Below are positions 16,162-64,000 of a DNA stretch of 64,000 bases, one piece after another. The number at the start of each line of letters is the position of its first letter. The stretch's first letter is position 1. The notes beneath the pieces were generated by a model, which saw only the letters and a program-made list of their open reading frames with translations, made no database searches and had not been told where the DNA came from. Origin of the DNA: a phage. The DNA lies in the sequence record PZ445443.1; one strand, 5' to 3'. A program made the position numbers and the translations under genes.

Positions 16162-16179
16162 TTTTTTAACTGAATTATC

Positions 16180-16206
16180 AAGGGGCTTAGGCCCCTTTCT
16201 TTTTGT
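16180..16206 (+). terminator. intrinsic terminator
   Basis: AAGGGGC-tta-GGCCCCTT hairpin followed by TCTTTTTGT. Confidence 0.65.
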
Positions 16207-18665
16207 CTGCTCTTCCCCTACCATAAACGGCCATACATGGCAAGTGGAATAATTGACGAGCCATCAATCCCACACACTGTACAAATATACATGTAAAATA
16301 ACTATTGCATAACTTTTCATTGTGTGGTAGCAGGGCCATTTTTACACGTTTTTCCTTCCAAAATTGCACGTAATGCAGCATTTGCACAAAATTTAACCTG
16401 ATGCATATCTTCAATAGCTTGTCAACAACTAAAAATCTTTATAAGTCATACACTTACATAACTACAAAAGCGTTTTCTACGTGAAAAATCGAGTATAACT
16501 ATAGCCGCCAGACCTCAGAATTTACGTACGCTCGACATTCTATAGCCTGCTAAGCATTTATTCCAACCATAGAATAACGGAATAGTCAATACCTGCATAA
16601 AATAATTATTCGTGTAAACTGCATAACATAAATCGGCCCAGGTGTCAACATTTTTCGTAAACAGTCCGAAATTATCACTATGAGTTATCATAAACAGGGA
16701 AATCTTTAGTCGTCTAATGTTTACTGTACATTACTATACTGACTGGAATCATTAGATGACTAAGAGAAAGATAAGAAATAATTAACAATACAATTATTTT
16801 ATCTGTAACAATAAGGCAACTATGCAAACGAATGGCATGGCGCGACGGAGTCGCGACATAATATAAAAGCAGTAACCATCACCCCCGTGATAGTTTGTCT
16901 GCAAACTATTAATCAGATCATAGTTGCCTTGTATTTAGTTAATCATGACATAACAAGCAAGGCAACTATAGATCTGCTAATAGTTGCCCTGCTTTTATAT
17001 TATGTCATAGAAACACCCGAAGGGGTGACCAAAGGTCACCTGGCATGGCCAGTGAAAGATTATTAACTTGCTAATAGTTATCATGCAAACGAATGGCATG
17101 GCTGATTATCGGTGTGTAAACAGTCAATCATGTAAATGGTTAGCATGTGAACAATCAGGAATGTAAACAATCCAGTGTGTAAACTAATAGGTGTGTAAAA
17201 GTGTCATGTTGTGTCAGTTAGGTCACATTATGTCATATTGTGTCAGACAAGTTTTTCTCCTCTTTGTCAAGTGCTGCATGAAAAATTTACAATCTGGTAT
17301 GGTAGCATTTTTGCGGCCCTGTTTACATTCAGGGGTGTATGTATAATCCTTGTTGTGTGGGCGTTTAGACGTCTGGACGGTCAGAAGTCTGCAGGTTAAT
17401 ATCTAATCTATTGGCTGCTAACTATATCCCACACAAATAGTAAGAAATATGATTGTTATATGCGTAAACTGTAACTCATGTTATCAATCCCTGTATGTAT
17501 CGCCAGTGGTGCGCATAATGGGTATTATGTTAAATTGCCCGTAATGATAAAGGTTCTCACAATGATAGGTATTCTCATTCACCCCCACAAAATAGATTGC
17601 AAATGTTGTGCCACTGTGTGAACGGCCTAGCCTATTAATTTGCCTCACTGCCTCGATATTTGAGAATTGTTATAAGAATGAGAAGTATTCCCATTTCGTC
17701 CGCCTGGCAGCACTCCTGTAGGTCAGGTCAAAATCGTGGTAGAACTGGACCTGTTCAGATATTTCTGGCTGACTCTTCAGGTCTGTGTGGGAAAAGCCAA
17801 CCTCTCCGGCGGGGCAGGGGATAGGTCAATTAAAAAATTTACGTGGTGTATGAAGCGCTCTTCAGGTAAGGCAGGTATTATGGGATGAAACCCTCTTCAG
17901 GCAATGATATTTGTGGGTGTGATATTTGCTGGAAAGCCAGATATGACGGGACTCCCGGCGGGGCAGGGGTGGTACAGACAGGGAAAATATGAAGGATGTG
18001 GTTGGGTAGATTGATCAGACAGGTAGAGTATGGAATATGTTACAAGTATGTTAAATATGGAGGTTGAATATCTGTAGGATTTGTGTGTAAAATCAAAGAC
18101 TTAAGTGGTGTTGTGGTATTTTCTATAAATAATTCAAGTTTAATAGGTGATATTTGTCTCTATCCGCTTTGTGTGGTAAACAGATTCAGATGAGATTGGT
18201 TTACAAGTGTATACATAATATACAAATTAAAGATACAAGAAACCCCCCTCCCCCTTCGGCTACCATTCACCTTTTCCTCTGACTGGTACTTAAACACTTA
18301 TTCAGACTCTTCAGGTTATCACCTATATATCATATGGCAGTGACTGGTGTCCTCCGGCCCCTCTTTCGTCACCCGTCCGCTTCGCCATGCTAATGCCATA
18401 GCCAATGGTTCGGTTGTTCACCCTGTTCACTCAGGTGTATCTCCATACCCCTTCAAACCGAAGAGAACAGAAAACCCGAATTACTCGGTAAAAGAAAAGA
18501 GAAGAACTTAATTTTATCAGGATAGGCAAGAATGTCAAGGCATGACTGCTCACTAAACAAGCAAACAGTCATGTGTGGGAGGTAAGTGATTGTGGTGGTA
18601 GGAAATTTAGTTGAAAGATGTGTTATAGGTGCTTCCAGCACTTTAGCCGGGCAGCTAATTGTGTG
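16207..18665. other. 2.5 kb ORF-free repeat-dense region between convergent gene blocks (candidate origin, packaging/injection-control region or ncRNA locus)
   Basis: No credible ORF with RBS; 20-bp direct repeat ATGCAAACGAATGGCATGGC (16822, 17083); TAGTTGCC iteron-like motifs; palindromes CGCGACGGAGTCGCG and GGTGACCaaaGGTCACC; GTGTGTAAAC run about 17120-17200; CTC(C/T)CGGCGGGGCAGGGG twice (17802, 17952); CTCTTCAGG 5-6 times. Confidence 0.6.
18511..18539 (-). promoter_or_regulatory. sigma70-like promoter on minus strand (TTGACA-17-TAAAAT) firing into the ORF-free region
   Basis: Reverse complement of 18534-18539 is TTGACA, of 18511-18516 is TAAAAT, spacer 17 bp; no CDS downstream. Confidence 0.45.
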
Positions 18666-44138: not shown

Positions 44139-44597
44139 TTAGAAGTTTGTTTTTACACGTCCCTTTTCATCGACTTCGTTATTAGCTAAAAGCGTTACAA
44201 AGTCTGTGAAACGGACATGAAGAACTCTTTTCTTATCAAGGTATCCTAAAGCCACCCCTGAGAAATTTAGCATCAAAGGGGCTAAAGAAGCTCTGGCACT
44301 GAAATGCTGTTGTTCTACCCTTCCAACACCCTTAGTGTAGGAAGGGTTAAGATTGTAAGTTCTGAATCCTAGTTTTGTTGGAGCTTTAGAATTAAAAACA
44401 ACTTTATAGCGTTTCTTACTCAACTTATGCTCCAGGATAAGCATTCCCTTATCACCCTTGATAAGTTGAAAATCTGTAAAGTGCTCTTTTAAGACGAAAG
44501 GTAGTGCCAGCCCCATCGCCTGCCCCCTTTGTACCGCTGTCTCACCAAAAGCTTTTGCATCAGTAAGTTCTTTGGTCAAGTCTATGCTTTTGATCAT
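44139..44597 (-). CDS. hypothetical protein
   Basis: 152 aa ORF. Confidence 0.5.
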   Translation of the reverse strand: MIKSIDLTKELTDAKAFGETAVQRGQAMGLALPFVLKEHFTDFQLIKGDKGMLILEHKLSKKRYKVVFNSKAPTKLGFRTYNLNPSYTKGVGRVEQQHFSARASLAPLMLNFSGVALGYLDKKRVLHVRFTDFVTLLANNEVDEKGRVKTNF

Positions 44598-57250: not shown

Positions 57251-57805
57251 ATGAAATACTTTGTAACAAGCGACACACACTTTCTCCACCAGCGGGTCAT
57301 GGAGTTTGATTCATGTCAAAAACACAGATCTCAGTATGATCACAATCTTGACAGTATGAATGCGGGAATCATCGCCAAGTGGAACTCTGTTGTGTCACCT
57401 GCAGACACTGTGTTCCACTTGGGAGATATTGCGTGCACCAATGATAAGAATATCAACAACTTACTTCCAGATATTCTAAATATGTTGAACGGACATATTA
57501 TTCTTGTTCGTGGCAACCATGACACAAGGACGACTGTCAGAATTATGAAAGAGTTCGGTCATGAGGTTGTAGATTATTACGAGCTTCGCCACAACAAGAA
57601 TTTGATCTGTATGAGCCATTACCAGTTTGCAAAGTGGAACAGAAAGCCTCACGGATCAGTCCAACTGTTCGGTCATGCTCACGGAACCACACAACAGTTG
57701 TTTGGCAGGCAGCTTGATGTCGGTTGGGATGTGTGGGGGAGACTCTTACCATTAGAAGAGGCATACCGTATTGCAATGAGTTTTGATATTGACAGCAGGG
57801 AGTAA
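57251..57805 (+). CDS. calcineurin-like metallophosphoesterase
   Basis: Track start trimmed to ATG 57251; motifs DTHF, GDIA, GNHD. Confidence 0.65.
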   Translation: MKYFVTSDTHFLHQRVMEFDSCQKHRSQYDHNLDSMNAGIIAKWNSVVSPADTVFHLGDIACTNDKNINNLLPDILNMLNGHIILVRGNHDTRTTVRIMKEFGHEVVDYYELRHNKNLICMSHYQFAKWNRKPHGSVQLFGHAHGTTQQLFGRQLDVGWDVWGRLLPLEEAYRIAMSFDIDSRE

Positions 57806-57852
57806 TCCCTGCTATTTTAAAGAAAATTGCCACACAAGGAGAATCAGGAGAT

Positions 57853-58203
57853 ATGAAAGATGGGGATAAGCTGCTATATCTTAAAGTCCCCCTTGAAATA
57901 CTATCTATGTCAAAAGTTTTGAATGACACAACTGGGGAGGTTGTTGTTCTTGACTTGTATGACAAGATCGTATACTGCTACCTGCACAACTGGTATAAGC
58001 TTGGAGGAAATTCACGCTTCACACCAAGCACAAGGAAAATTGCAGCAGATGTTGGGATAAAGAAAACAAAAGCAGCAGCGTGCGTTAAAACTTTAGAATG
58101 TGCAGGAGTGGTTGAAACATCCACACAAGGGAGAGGTAAAAGATGCACATTTTCCAAAGTTTTGCCACCAGAAGAAGTTATTCGGATGTCAACAACTGGT
58201 TAG
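57853..58203 (+). CDS. putative HTH DNA-binding protein
   Basis: ATG with CAGGAG RBS; HTH-like STRKIAADVGIKKTKAAACVKTLECAGVVE. Confidence 0.5.
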   Translation: MKDGDKLLYLKVPLEILSMSKVLNDTTGEVVVLDLYDKIVYCYLHNWYKLGGNSRFTPSTRKIAADVGIKKTKAAACVKTLECAGVVETSTQGRGKRCTFSKVLPPEEVIRMSTTG

Positions 58204-58278
58204 ACCAGTAAAAAACTTAAATATCTGTACTATAAGGATTCGTATGTTTTATGTTCGCCATGGAACGGATACTATTAA

Positions 58279-58362
58279 CTGTCCGTGATACGGACACTAC
58301 TGTCCGTCACGCGGACACATCTGCCCGTAATACGGACACTAACTGTCCGTGATACGGACACA
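58279..58362. repeat. array of four tandem palindromic operator-like sites (GTCCGT-N3-ACGGAC) at 21-22 bp spacing
   Basis: Cores at 58281, 58302, 58323 and 58345; copies 1 and 4 perfect, 2 and 3 one mismatch. Confidence 0.6.
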
Positions 58363-58500
58363 TAAAGAATATAACTAAAATAACTAAATAATAAAAAATA
58401 AAAGATCTAGTACTTATGGTACTAAGTACATATACTTAACTTATGTAGAATATACTAGATCCTAAGTACCATGTTTTAAATTTATTACTTACTATGGACA
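58363..58500. promoter_or_regulatory. AT-rich region with nested inverted repeats
   Basis: About 85% AT; inverted repeats AGATCTAGTA/TACTAGATC and ATGGTACT/AGTACCAT. Confidence 0.4.
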
Positions 58501-58790
58501 GTGTCGGCCCTTCATTGGCACTCGCCTACGAGGGGCGAGATGCCGGGCCTCCTTGGTGCACACAATAACAGAAGTGCATACATGCAGGTCTGTTAACATG
58601 TGTGGGAGCGAAGCGATAGCGCAGGCCAAAGGCCGAGCACTGATGTGGACCACCGACGAAAGCTTGCCAGCGCCGTAAGGAGTCGGTTGAGAGTCTCCCG
58701 CGCGAGCTTGGATGAAGTTTATGTGTGGAAACTGACAAGAAGGCCCCTAAATCGCTCCACAGCTATATAAACTATACCAGGTAATGCAAT
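58501..58790. other. GC-rich ORF-free island A (candidate structured RNA or protein-binding region)
   Basis: Locally high GC in an AT-rich genome; hairpins visible; only low-complexity ORF lacking RBS. Confidence 0.35.
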
Positions 58791-58864
58791 CGCACCAGTT
58801 TGATAGAAAAGCTCGTTACAAAGCGATACAGTGAGTTTTTCTATAACTTGAAGAGGAGGCAGTT

Positions 58865-59718: not shown

Positions 59719-59961
59719 ATGTTTAAGGTTAAGCTCGTTTTTCGTTCCATGAATGAGGATTATTTAGAAGATGAAGGTGAATTTCGTGCACTGGATGATG
59801 CAATAGATTTTGCCAACGACTTAGCTTGTATGAATACAGGTTATGGGCTATGTTGTTGGGATGGTGGTGTTCAGATCGGTGATAGCAAGATCTTCTACTT
59901 CTACCCTGAGCCTGATAACAAACAAATTAAGTATGTTTTATTTATTTGTGCTTTACAATGA
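59719..59961 (+). CDS. hypothetical protein
   Basis: 80 aa ORF. Confidence 0.5.
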   Translation: MFKVKLVFRSMNEDYLEDEGEFRALDDAIDFANDLACMNTGYGLCCWDGGVQIGDSKIFYFYPEPDNKQIKYVLFICALQ

Positions 59962-60742: not shown

Positions 60743-60817
60743 GCCCTGTTAGCTTAGTGGATAAAGCAGCGGCCTTCTAAGCCGTTGACACTGGTTCGAG
60801 TCCAGTACGGGGTGCCA
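60743..60817 (+). tRNA. tRNA-Arg (anticodon TCT), CCA encoded
   Basis: Hand-folded cloverleaf: 7-bp acceptor stem (two G-U), anticodon loop CTTCTAA, T-loop TTCGAGT. Confidence 0.7.
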
Positions 60818-60821
60818 AATT

Positions 60822-60908
60822 GGGGAGTTATCCCGTAGAGGTAGCGGTGTAGACTGTAAATCTATTGTCATTGCGACTCGGGTGGTTCGACTCCACCACT
60901 CCCCACCA
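60822..60908 (+). tRNA. tRNA-Tyr (anticodon GTA), long variable arm, CCA encoded
   Basis: Perfect 7-bp acceptor stem GGGGAGT/ACTCCCC; anticodon loop CTGTAAA; T-loop TTCGACT; 87 nt. Confidence 0.7.
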
Positions 60909-61022
60909 AATTTATATTTTTAGATGCATAAATAATACAGATAATGGCATTGATATTTATCGTCGTTTATACTAGTCACTAACTGCTCGAAAATCAGTGT
61001 CATTATCAGTATAATTTATAAA

Positions 61023-61113
61023 GGAGGGTAGGGAGCAATGGTGCTCAAGCGGTCTTGAAAACCGTCCCGTTGAGGATGACTCGATGATGGTTCGATTCCA
61101 TTACTCTCCGCCA
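61023..61113 (+). tRNA. tRNA-Ser (anticodon TGA), long variable arm, CCA encoded
   Basis: Acceptor GGAGGGT/ACTCTCC; anticodon loop CTTGAAA; T-loop TTCGATT; 91 nt. Confidence 0.65.
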
Positions 61114-61211
61114 CATTGTTGACCTTGTAATTAAGCGAAAGTCGGAAGCAGAACCGGATTATCAAATGTTACAGTCGTCATCGCCGACTAGCAACATGGT
61201 CAACATACTGA

Positions 61212-61308
61212 GCTAGGTAAGCCCTTTGGCAAGGGCGAGGATTTTTAATCCTGAAAATAGACGAGGTAGTCGTTGAATACATAGGTGGTTCGATTCCATC
61301 ACCTAGCA
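61212..61308 (+). tRNA. atypical tRNA-like gene (possible UUU anticodon, oversized variable region, no encoded CCA)
   Basis: Perfect acceptor stem GCTAGGT/ACCTAGC and T-arm GGTGG-TTCGATT-CCATC; anticodon arm non-canonical (AGGA-TTTTTAA-TCCT); 29 nt between anticodon and T stems; 97 nt. Confidence 0.4.
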
Positions 61309-61315
61309 CCTTTTT

Positions 61316-61391
61316 GCTGATGTAGCACAATCGGTAGTGCAATTGATTTGTAATCAATAGGTTGTAGGTTCAAGTCCTGCCATCAGCACCA
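61316..61391 (+). tRNA. tRNA-Thr (anticodon TGT), CCA encoded
   Basis: Perfect acceptor stem GCTGATG/CATCAGC; anticodon stem ATTGA/TCAAT with loop TTTGTAA; T-loop TTCAAGT. Confidence 0.75.
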
Positions 61392-61392
61392 A

Positions 61393-61467
61393 GGCCCTGT
61401 AGCTGGAAGGTTCAAGCAAGCGACTCATAATCGCCAGACGGTGGTTCAATTCCACCCAGGGCCACCA
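61393..61467 (+). tRNA. tRNA-Met or tRNA-Ile2 (anticodon CAT), CCA encoded
   Basis: Perfect acceptor stem GGCCCTG/CAGGGCC; anticodon loop CTCATAA; T-loop TTCAATT. Confidence 0.7.
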
Positions 61468-61478
61468 AATAGTAAATA

Positions 61479-61555
61479 CTCCGCGTAGCTCAGCTTGGTA
61501 GAGCGCCTGATTTGGGATCAGGAGGTCGAGTGTTCGAATCACTCCGTGGAGACCA
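61479..61555 (+). tRNA. tRNA-Pro (anticodon TGG), CCA encoded
   Basis: Acceptor CTCCGCG/CGTGGAG; anticodon stem CCTGA/TCAGG with loop TTTGGGA; T-loop TTCGAAT. Confidence 0.7.
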
Positions 61556-62659: not shown

Positions 62660-63087
62660 TGTCTAAGATTTACGGACCGTGTTCTGAAAAGCAGAAGATG
62701 ATCCTAGAAAACGATGCAGATATTTTGGTAATCGGCGGTGCCGCAGGGTCTGGCAAGTCGTTCCTCTTGCAATTGATGCCACTTAAAATTATTGATGACC
62801 CCCACAGCTCTGTGGTTATGTTCCGAAGAACAACCCCACAGTTGGAAGGTGAGGGTGGATTATGGCCTAAAGCAGTAGCTATTTATAGTGATCTGCCTGA
62901 AAACATTAAGCCAAAGTTTAGAGAGAAGGATCATAAGTTCATTTTTCCACGGTTTGATCCGAACACTGGCAAGTGGGATAGAAGCAAAAAGGGAGCTGTT
63001 GTAAAATACTGCCACATGGAGTATGTACAAGATAAGCTTAACCATCAGGGGCTTGAGTACACCATGGTTTGCTTCGATGAGGGTTAA
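62659..63087 (+). CDS. terminase large subunit, N-terminal ATPase segment (interrupted after Walker B)
   Basis: Walker A VIGGAAGSGKS preceded by QK-ILE-DA; ends at Walker B-like MVCFDEG followed by stop. Confidence 0.5.
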   Translation: MSKIYGPCSEKQKMILENDADILVIGGAAGSGKSFLLQLMPLKIIDDPHSSVVMFRRTTPQLEGEGGLWPKAVAIYSDLPENIKPKFREKDHKFIFPRFDPNTGKWDRSKKGAVVKYCHMEYVQDKLNHQGLEYTMVCFDEG

Positions 63088-64000
63088 TTTGTAGCTCTCG
63101 TAAAACCTCCCTAATTGCGGGGAAATCTTTATTATTGACACCACCAACCTGTCATGGTAACATGACAGAGGCTTCGAAGAGAGATCGAAGGTATGGTAAC
63201 AGTGTGTTAATTTAGATAATCCGCAGCGAAGCATCCGAGAGGATGAACGTTCAACGACTAGTCGAAAGACGTAGAATCAAGCGATTCGAAACGGGAGGGT
63301 GAATGTGTAATACTAAAAAATGTATGGATTGCCAAAGAGTTCTACCTATTGATGATTTCTTTTTATCATCTAAGAGCAAGGATGGATACTCAGGTACATG
63401 CAAGGAATGCTATATGTACTACAGGAAGGGTGGATCTCGTAAAAACAAAAATATGGTTAAGAGAGATGATGCAGCATTGTTTATTCAAGACTTGCTGAAG
63501 AAAGGTGAACTTTTTGAATGCAAATCTTGTCATGAAAGTATGCTCGCTGATAGTTTTTACACAAAACGTGACTATGGTAAAGTATATCTGGTTACGAACA
63601 GGTGTAAGATGTGTGAAAAGTTTTATCAGATTGAGAAGAAATTTCACATAACAAAAGATGAATACTATCGTCTACTCTCAGATCAAGATCATAAGTGTGC
63701 CATTTGTAGAATATCCCTTGATGAGTATAGGACGCAAGGGTATAGAGATTTCTTTTGTGTTGATCATGACCATAAAACTGGTGCTGTAAGAGGGTTGCTT
63801 TGTGATAAATGCAACAGAGCTTTAGGTTTCTTCCAAGAGGATGAGGAAACTATTCTTAGAGCGGCAGAGTATTTACACATTCATAAGATATAGTCTGGTC
63901 TGCATGGAGACATGCAGCTGCCTGAAAATGGCGGGGCAAGACTAGCGACCTTGCCCGAACATAAACGACACAATTCGAATGGGAGCAGATAGACTATCTG
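63088..64000 (+). mobile_element. intron-like insertion (probable group I intron with homing endonuclease ORF), 3' end beyond window
   Basis: Interrupts terminase ORF at a conserved site; structured flanks (TAGTCT...AGACTA, GGGCAAG...CTTGCCC pairings); free-standing nuclease ORF with own RBS. Confidence 0.4.
63303..63893 (+). CDS. endonuclease VII-family homing endonuclease
   Basis: ATG with GGGAGGGTG RBS; motif CVDHDHKTGAVRGLLCDKCN; N-terminal Cys clusters. Confidence 0.6.
   Translation: MCNTKKCMDCQRVLPIDDFFLSSKSKDGYSGTCKECYMYYRKGGSRKNKNMVKRDDAALFIQDLLKKGELFECKSCHESMLADSFYTKRDYGKVYLVTNRCKMCEKFYQIEKKFHITKDEYYRLLSDQDHKCAICRISLDEYRTQGYRDFFCVDHDHKTGAVRGLLCDKCNRALGFFQEDEETILRAAEYLHIHKI

Follow-up and report, generated by a model that had tools for sequence, protein, structure and literature searches.

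A candidate iteron-type replication origin and its putative winged-helix initiator in rV5-like Vequintavirus phages

What is the role of a tandem row of palindromes which, in a virulent phage, is placed between the end of a small helix-turn-helix (HTH) gene and a strongly AT-rich tract? The question is raised by a 64,000-nucleotide stretch of phage DNA (sequence record PZ445443.1), referred to as the window, in which four such palindromes follow the gene for a protein of 116 amino acids. With Escherichia phages of the genus Vequintavirus, rV5-like myoviruses of about 137 kb, the region shares 99.6% identity, and 118 phage records contain it. In GenBank the repeats are marked just mechanically as "repeat_region", and no paper was found in the literature which links array, AT tract, and protein or which defines an origin for the rV5-like phages. 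On balance, we favor the reading that the locus is an iteron-type origin of the Vequintavirus phages together with its initiator. The 116-residue protein would bind the palindromes, the AT tract would melt on binding, and replication would start there.

The palindromes share the layout TGTCCG-N5-CGGACA (6+5+6), and their start-to-start distances are 21, 21, and 22 bp; the array begins 76 bp past the stop codon of the 116-residue gene (Table 1). A search of the 64 kb for TGTCCGTNNNACGGACA with at most two mismatches gives five matches against 0.12 expected from shuffled sequences. Four of these are the array and the fifth, at 44201, carries two mismatches. The centers of sites 1 to 4 are TGATA, TCACG, TAATA, and TGATA. 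Across the copies and the related phages, TG(T/C)CCG-N5-CGGACA is the invariant core, while the five central bases vary (TGATA, TGAGA, TCACG, CCACG, CTACG, TAATA, and CAATA). The preliminary description had reported four copies of GTCCGT-N3-ACGGAC, 21-22 bp apart, right after an HTH-like gene; its count and spacing are borne out, and the gene is a real open reading frame (ORF) with HTH signatures, whereas the consensus was slightly over-specified in comparison with the core. No satellites or prophages with the array were found in complete E. coli genomes.

Table 1. Positions of the array, its sites, and the neighboring features in the window (a dot stands for no strand)
Feature	Position	Strand	Basis
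Promoter-like site, sigma-70-like: TTGACA, 18-nt spacer, TATTTT, extended -10 TG	57789..57818	+	10/12 consensus matches, consensus match only
Winged-helix protein gene, 116 aa (rV5 gp79, Bas54 bas54_0212)	57853..58203	+	ORF, HTH signatures
Array of four 21-22-bp units, each with one 17-bp palindrome; proposed iterons	58276..58361	.	Repeat and motif scans
Site 1, TGTCCGTGATACGGACA, perfect palindrome arms	58280..58296	.	Sequence, motif scan
Site 2, TGTCCGTCACGCGGACA	58301..58317	.	Sequence, motif scan
Site 3, TGCCCGTAATACGGACA; C at position 3, where phage JEP1 has T	58322..58338	.	Sequence, motif scan
Site 4, TGTCCGTGATACGGACA, same as site 1	58344..58360	.	Sequence, motif scan
AT-rich tract, candidate DNA-unwinding element	58361..58497	.	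AT content, stability, inverted repeats
Conserved GC-rich (~58%) non-coding block, between the AT tract and the next gene	58498..58760	.	Diversity 0.059

Whether measured over 60, 100, or 136 bp, the DNA that follows the array is richer in AT than any other part of the window. Its AT content is 79% over 58362-58497 and 85% in the first 60 bp, so that the block of 140 bp with about 85% AT which had been described earlier is found for the first 60 bp only. The nested inverted repeats of that description are present; they include GTACTTA-N6-TAAGTAC at 58410-58429 and GATCTAGTA paired with TACTAGATC. The tract holds the least stable 100 bp of the window, with a nearest-neighbor free energy of -102 kcal/mol against a mean of -132 (standard deviation 6), which is about 4.9 standard deviations under the mean of 100-bp windows. 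Two GATC sites are present in it (58404 and 58458), and neither a DnaA-box nor an IHF consensus was found when the intergenic region was searched for them. The order of gene, iterons, and AT tract is the same as in the lambda origin and in foreign viral contigs (described below), and this is counted in favor of an origin.

Among PHROGs, the best match of the 116-residue protein is phrog_12838 ("replication initiation protein"; E 5e-80), and several other initiator families match more weakly. By tblastn it occurs only in the 118 Vequintavirus records, a word-indexed protein search returns solely near-identical Vequintavirus proteins, and its close relatives are all of the same length. An exhaustive HMMER search of 1.8 billion representative proteins gives one cluster below 1e-30 and a dozen distant relatives at 1e-6 to 1e-3. 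These distant relatives are HTH_36, DUF6945, DnaD_N, or O-like initiator proteins, and one of them is a GIY-YIG nuclease fused to the DNA-binding domain, which is the architecture of ICP1 Odn. NCBIfam and PADLOC scans gave nothing meaningful. Some of the small distant relatives (P0009, P0016, P0017, and P0019) have acidic C-terminal tails ending in PF or NF, which recall the partner-binding tails of SSB and T7 gp2.5; the rV5-type protein has no such tail. When the distant-relative subgroup was used as query against IMG/VR loci, none was found.

The best relative of solved structure is PDB 4RO3 (phmmer E 3e-6 with the single sequence and 4e-13 with the family profile), and the N-terminal domains (NTDs) of staphylococcal RepA_N proteins are weak matches in the same PDB list. 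4RO3 is the N-terminal domain of the RepA protein of the Vibrio cholerae PLE satellite (PMC7145576). An AlphaFold2 model built from nine diverse sequences reaches a predicted local distance difference test (pLDDT) score of 81.4, where five near-identical sequences had earlier given just 45. It is a winged helix with an N-terminal beta-hairpin and ends in one short helix (106-112) past the wing. In Foldseek the top seven matches to this model are all RepA_N NTDs, among them 4RO3, 4PQL, 5KBJ (RepA bound to iteron DNA), and 4PT7. The N-terminal winged helix of the RepA_N/DnaD-NTD fold is found both in the predicted model and in the sequence search, and together they indicate that the protein corresponds, as a stand-alone homolog, to the DNA-binding N-terminal domain of RepA_N/PLE-RepA-type initiators.

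The names under which this protein is filed are discordant. In GenBank it is often a "putative transcriptional regulator" and, via PHROGs, a "replication initiation protein". In Table S3 of the rV5 genome paper, gp79 (DQ832317 gene 79) is a "structural protein (MS evidence)", where MS stands for mass spectrometry. This evidence comes down to two peptides, both non-tryptic, each seen in a single spectrum, and with scores at the threshold (XCorr 1.86 and 2.08; Sp ranks 20 and 79). The peptides are most likely false positives and the structural label is probably wrong.

Selection on the locus was assessed from nucleotide diversity among 12 distinct Vequintavirus sequences, including metagenomic relatives whose protein is just 87-91% identical. 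Diversity is 0.024 in the array, 0.044 in the AT tract, and 0.059 in the GC-rich block that follows, compared with 0.12-0.16 at third codon positions of the flanking genes and 0.34 in the 22 bp immediately 5′ of the array. Because of their low values, array and AT tract are seen to be constrained like first and second codon positions, and the comparison of sequences indicates that both are under purifying selection across the genus. Conservation in related phages had been named as a check, and the array is indeed kept throughout the genus with two to six units. There are four units in most phages, including rV5 and the phage of the window, two in navn, three in FFH2, and six in O157 typing phage 14. 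The number always changes by whole units with the phasing kept, and the arms, as given by the core above, do not vary across copies and relatives, variation being confined to the central 5 bp. Several Logan assemblies break within the array, as is expected of a repeat.

The same palindrome also occurs outside the genus. An exact scan of IMG/VR for CTGTCCG-N5-CGGACAC gave mostly single chance matches and, in addition, six independent arrays, in which 3-7 copies follow one another every 20-27 bp, on contigs of 49-70% GC (L013/L052/L082, L043, L091, L092, L124, and L125). In at least five of the six, the array is situated within an ORF with an N-terminal HTH domain, and three independent ORF families around these arrays score "replication initiation / O-like" PHROGs or HTH_36. 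Past each foreign array, on the side away from the HTH-coding part, there is a relatively A/T-rich stretch. In phmmer comparisons the window protein has no match among the ORFs beside the foreign arrays, and hhalign connects its family with one foreign ORF family at a probability of 84% over HTH and wing, which is a weak link. Since direct sequence similarity is weak, the relation between the window array and the foreign arrays is founded on the shared DNA motif and on family-level similarity. In L052 and L082 the initiator seems to be in two pieces, an HTH protein of 133 residues with its tail encoded by the array and a distinct ORF of 164 residues.

Distant homologs of the protein keep company with palindromes of other sequence. 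Gp115 of Pseudomonas phage phiPMW is encoded at a divergent switch beside an RNA ligase and a kinase, with tRNAs downstream, in a neighborhood which is syntenic with the rV5 locus though the genera are unrelated. Upstream of gp115 there are three GGACAAAATGTCC palindromes (GGACA-AAA-TGTCC; L140, 2837-2913), with the same pentamer half-site as the rV5 array in the opposite arrangement, and directly 5′ of the gene there is an AT tract rich in GATAGA. In Erwinia phage pEp_SNUABM_01 (Vequintavirinae, Henunavirus), gp227 is preceded by an AT tract and two palindromes of the TGCTCAA-T-TTGAGCA type. From these two homologs it appears that protein and tandem palindromes travel together, the site sequence changing with the protein.

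Genetic information is available from a HIDEN-SEQ preprint of 2025, in which phage Bas54 was subjected to saturating transposon mutagenesis (10.1101/2025.11.20.689424). Bas54 was identified as phage MaxBurger and has the same four-site array. The HTH gene bas54_0212 was hit in 17 of its 20 TA sites with a mean of 13.6 reads, and bas54_0213, a small ORF laid over the array, in 4 of 7 with a mean of 18.1; both are classed as "Intermediate", and flanking genes have mean reads of 135-400 (10.1101/2025.11.20.689424). bas54_0213 is a spurious ORF, and the 140 bp from the array to bas54_0214, with 30 TA sites, lie outside the gene-level tables. Gene and array in Bas54 have in common a specific, about 10-fold, non-lethal fitness defect. 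The 80-residue bas54_0218 (window 59719-59961) is as low as both of them, with a mean of 12.1 over 16 of 19 sites, and the 192-residue gene next to the locus is Non-essential at 31 of 34 TA sites and a mean of 139.5 (10.1101/2025.11.20.689424). bas54_0218 may act in the same pathway as gene and array, whereas the 192-residue neighbor, given its normal reads, is placed outside it.

The adjacent protein very likely has the array as its cognate binding site. The assignment is made because the two co-localize across homologs, because the dyad symmetry of the sites matches a dimeric relative, because the arms are conserved in a sequence-specific way, and because the transposon phenotype is common to both.

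Among characterized systems, the PLE satellite offers the closest parallel for the protein. PLE RepA binds three tandem semi-palindromic iterons (Barth et al., NAR 2020, PMC7145576), and both RepA and the iterons are needed for replication of the satellite by the replisome of phage ICP1 (PMC7145576; eLife 2021, PMC8263062). It has no evident BLASTP similarity to staphylococcal RepA and was assigned to RepA_N by structure (PMC7145576). The likeness extends to a dimeric winged-helix N-terminal domain, to a short tandem row of semi-palindromic repeats that lies outside coding sequence, close to a divergent strand switch, and to a replicon that depends on the phage-encoded replisome of a large myovirus. 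Moreover, the module is also found fused to a GIY-YIG nuclease in ICP1 Odn, as it is in one relative of the window protein. PLE RepA differs in having a C-terminal domain, which the window protein lacks, and PLE has three iterons, each about 30 bp long and converging on a poly-A tract, in place of four 21-22-bp units with a variable 5-bp center. RepA and iterons are required in PLE, whereas the rV5-like gene and array are dispensable for plaque formation, and the PLE replicon is a satellite while in the rV5-like case it would be the phage itself.

In the staphylococcal RepA_N proteins (S. aureus pSK41 and pTZ2162; 4PQL, 4PT7, 4PTA, and 5KBJ), the fold of the NTD is the second-closest after 4RO3, and tandem semi-palindromic direct-repeat iterons are bound by NTD dimers (PMC7145576). 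The window likewise has tandem semi-palindromic iterons beside the putative initiator gene, but its inverted sub-repeats do not converge on poly-A. The window protein has no PF06970 match and no C-terminal domain, and it belongs to a virulent coliphage and not to Gram-positive plasmids. In RepA_N plasmids the origin lies within the rep gene, while the array of the window stands 76 bp past the stop codon.

In ori-lambda, which lies inside gene O, the coding sequence of the NTD comes first, then four dyad-symmetric phased repeats as iterons, and then an AT-rich unwinding region. Several phased dyad-symmetric iterons, flanked on one side by an AT-rich region, are found in the window as well, and the foreign contigs L052, L091, and L092 with TGTCCG-N5-CGGACA have the array inside an O-like ORF, just as lambda does. 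In contrast with lambda, the array of the window is intergenic and lies outside the gene, its iteron sequence is unrelated to that of lambda, and the protein has no Phage_rep_O match and lacks the C-terminal domain of O which recruits a P-type helicase loader.

T4 (oriF and oriG) and T7 (primary origin) show that individual origins of a large virulent phage can be deleted at a mere fitness cost, as other origins or recombination-dependent replication take over. Such dispensable origins match the transposon phenotype of Bas54, and the rV5 replisome is T7-like. The origins of T4 and T7 differ in that they are activated by transcription (R-loop or RNA polymerase priming) without a dedicated iteron-binding initiator.

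The following sequence of events may be proposed. A dimer of the winged-helix protein would sit on each TGTCCG-N5-CGGACA palindrome. With sites two helical turns apart, the dimers would lie on one face of the DNA and form a compact nucleoprotein array, which would distort the DNA and aid the melting of the adjacent AT tract. At the opened tract, synthesis would be started by the phage T7-gp4-like primase-helicase and family-A polymerase; according to the rV5 genome paper, the replisome of this phage is indeed T7-like, with a gp4-type primase-helicase and PolA. An origin of this kind would raise fitness and presumably be dispensable through other routes of initiation, which may be a second origin (e.g., in a transposon-free 2.5-kb region) or recombination-dependent replication.

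The region in question is an intergenic stretch of about 2.5 kb between convergent genes, in which Bas54 sustained no insertion at all (10.1101/2025.11.20.689424). It corresponds to about 16.2-18.7 kb of the window (16162-18665) and to the "non-coding" box of rV5. It contains no credible ORF, its GC content is 0.30-0.40 in part, and it is dense in repeats: four 22-mers of the TGTAAACA type, a perfect 18-bp inverted repeat (16855-72 with 16989-17006), exact direct repeats of 20 bp and 15 bp, and a 10-bp tandem repeat at 17201-17245. No TGTCCG-N5-CGGACA site occurs in it.

This region has to be taken seriously as a candidate essential cis element and possibly as the main origin, and as such it is one of several observations that weigh against an iteron-type origin at the array. 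Neither gene nor array is essential, and therefore the locus cannot be the sole obligatory origin; their common 10-fold depletion is equally compatible with a regulator and its operator. The protein lacks a C-terminal effector domain for helicase or primase recruitment, unlike every characterized RepA_N or O-type initiator. Its matches to Pfam fall just under the cutoffs (DUF6945 at 27.4 bits against 28 and HTH_36 at 24.5 against 25), and it has no match to PF06970 (RepA_N), tested at E ≤ 1, or to PF04492 (Phage_rep_O). The iteron centers are not poly-A, unlike those of typical RepA_N iterons. A minus-to-plus switch in GC skew and transcription at about 56.7 kb, 1.5 kb away from the array locus, was counted in favor of an origin. 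In the rV5 genome paper the origin was sought by skew analysis and only transcription switches were seen, one of them at 66.7 kb in rV5, which is about 56.75 kb in the window. The skew switch coincides with the change in transcription direction and so is not independent evidence. On the whole, the origin that had been suggested in the preliminary description gains from the homology to initiators, the foreign arrays in O-like genes, the extreme AT tract, and the signs of selection, and it loses from the non-essential nature of gene and array in the transposon data.

The principal alternative, which the preliminary description had named as a cooperative repressor operator, is that the protein is a winged-helix regulator and the array its operator, where cooperative binding at four sites would repress or activate transcription in or through the 660-bp intergenic region. 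It would act on the small genes downstream, the tRNA cluster, and the lysis/terminase operon, and loss of protein or sites would lead to misregulation with a fitness cost. The winged helix is indeed generic and is shared by regulators of the MarR, SarX, CodY, and LexA type; an effector domain is absent from the protein, which is a "putative transcriptional regulator" in many GenBank records, and a non-lethal phenotype common to gene and array is what this explanation would also give. In phiPMW and the Erwinia phage, the palindromes precede the gene of the homolog itself and coincide in part with annotated promoters, which resembles autoregulation. However, no sigma-70-like promoter with at least 9 of 12 consensus matches was found on either strand of 58204-58864, phage-specific promoter types being outside the scope of that scan, and none of the sites overlaps the promoter-like site at 57789-57818. 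The foreign arrays of the same palindrome are inside initiator genes and not at promoters, the nearest relatives of the protein are initiators, and the extreme, conserved AT tract adjoining the sites is left unexplained. Furthermore, bas54_0214 and bas54_0216 have normal reads (bas54_0215 has about half and bas54_0218 is depleted), so that only overexpression toxicity would explain the cost. For these reasons an operator is regarded as rather unlikely, though it is the rival with the most in its favor. An element acting at the level of RNA is a good deal less probable. In this case the palindromes, standing 76 bp past the stop codon at the 3′ end of the winged-helix mRNA, would form terminator, attenuator, or REP-like stabilizer hairpins, and the array does fold strongly as a single strand (-25 kcal/mol, z-score -6.6). 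Yet a terminator scan of the region was empty and no T/U run follows any of the hairpins. The arms keep their sequence and not merely their complementarity, with no compensatory changes seen; helical phasing at 21-22 bp and copy changes by whole units are properties of DNA; and the same arms recur within initiator genes of unrelated viruses.

Two further explanations are judged very improbable, and both were rejected. Some small terminases bind repeated sites through N-terminal winged helices, and the large-subunit gene of the terminase lies about 4.3 kb downstream, so that the array could be a pac site and the protein a small terminase subunit, to which the structural label of gp79 in the rV5 paper would lend some weight. 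The peptides behind that label are weak, the relatives in sequence and fold are initiators and not terminases, and viable insertions in 17 of 20 TA sites of bas54_0212, "Intermediate" and not essential, do not suit a small terminase. A partition site, which had been offered as an option beside the origin, would make the array a centromere and the protein its binding partner in the maintenance of an episome. Phased repeats bound by a small protein do resemble type Ib, II, or III centromeres, and CP057073.1 (PLSDB), filed as a non-mobilizable E. coli plasmid of 137.5 kb, is a Vequintavirus genome, perhaps because of contamination or a carrier state. In a virulent phage group such as this one, partition is without a biological rationale, and no partner NTPase gene of the ParA, ParM, or TubZ type is adjacent, nor is a ParB-type gene, as the neighbors are a kinase-like gene, a metallophosphatase, and the 192-residue protein. 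The protein itself resembles RepA NTDs and not ParB, ParR, or TubR, and the adjacent AT tract would again go unexplained.

As regards the wider neighborhood, the minus strand before the divergent switch at about 56.75 kb carries Sir2-like genes and an RNA ligase. After it, the plus strand carries a polynucleotide-kinase-like gene (a P-loop protein, AAA_33), the metallophosphatase, and the HTH gene, and the promoter-like site is just 5′ of the latter; motif scans found no palindrome or half-site overlapping this site. A gap of 660 bp without credible ORF (58204-58864) follows on the 3′ side of the HTH gene, and beyond it come, in order, the 192-residue gene (function unassigned), small genes, the tRNA cluster, spanins, and terminase. 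The GC-rich block in the gap is probably a feature separate from the origin element. Its substitutions show no 3-base (coding) periodicity, and a structured RNA was considered and rejected, as the block matches no Rfam family, its folding z-score is a modest -2.5 or so and alike on both strands, and no compensatory changes occur in a set of only six distinct sequences. Insertions in it are tolerated in Bas54, in 5 of 5 sites of bas54_0214 (mean 135) and 4 of 6 sites of bas54_0215 (mean 78) (10.1101/2025.11.20.689424).

Some further features of the window and of related records may be mentioned. The tRNA cluster (60743-61552) includes two long elements whose best score is tRNA-Sec-like (60822-60904 and 61023-61109), which are annotated as Tyr and Ser in related records, and a 97-nt element (61212-61308) which relatives annotate as "tRNA-OTHER" or Lys. 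The terminase large-subunit gene is interrupted by a group I intron (63075-63917), which scores 48.5 bits in Rfam, a little short of the gathering score of 50, and contains an HNH-type endonuclease ORF (63303-63893); the rV5 genome paper had reported this intron earlier. The name "Campylobacter phage" is attached in GenBank to 18 records which are nearly identical with these E. coli phages, and it is probably wrong.

The type of element proposed here is well known, and its unusual trait is an initiator which consists of the DNA-binding domain alone. For rV5-like phages (Vequintavirinae), whose origin has been undefined since the genome paper, the locus is a small and concrete candidate, made up of a protein of 116 residues, four sites of 17 bp, and an AT tract of 137 bp. 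Isolates of these phages are common, cocktails for E. coli O157 biocontrol and therapy make use of them, and in their engineering the element could be employed as a replicon that depends on the phage. With an effector-less initiator, it could moreover be studied in an unusually minimal setting how DNA is opened by the binding of iterons alone. A more far-reaching version, which is put forward tentatively as a possibility on the doubtful side, is that a large virulent myovirus replicates in part from an iteron origin of plasmid or satellite type, auxiliary to the 2.5-kb cis element, by means of an initiator with only a DNA-binding domain, module and half-site TGTCC having been exchanged. Array and AT tract would then suffice for a self-loading gp4-type helicase, or a new partner protein would be involved. 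If this is true, the module and the TGTCC half-site are common to phages, O-like initiators, the PLE satellite, and homing-nuclease fusions, which would point to an exchange of origin-recognition modules by phages with their parasites; the connection with PLE RepA and Odn suggests that phages, satellites, and nucleases trade one such module.

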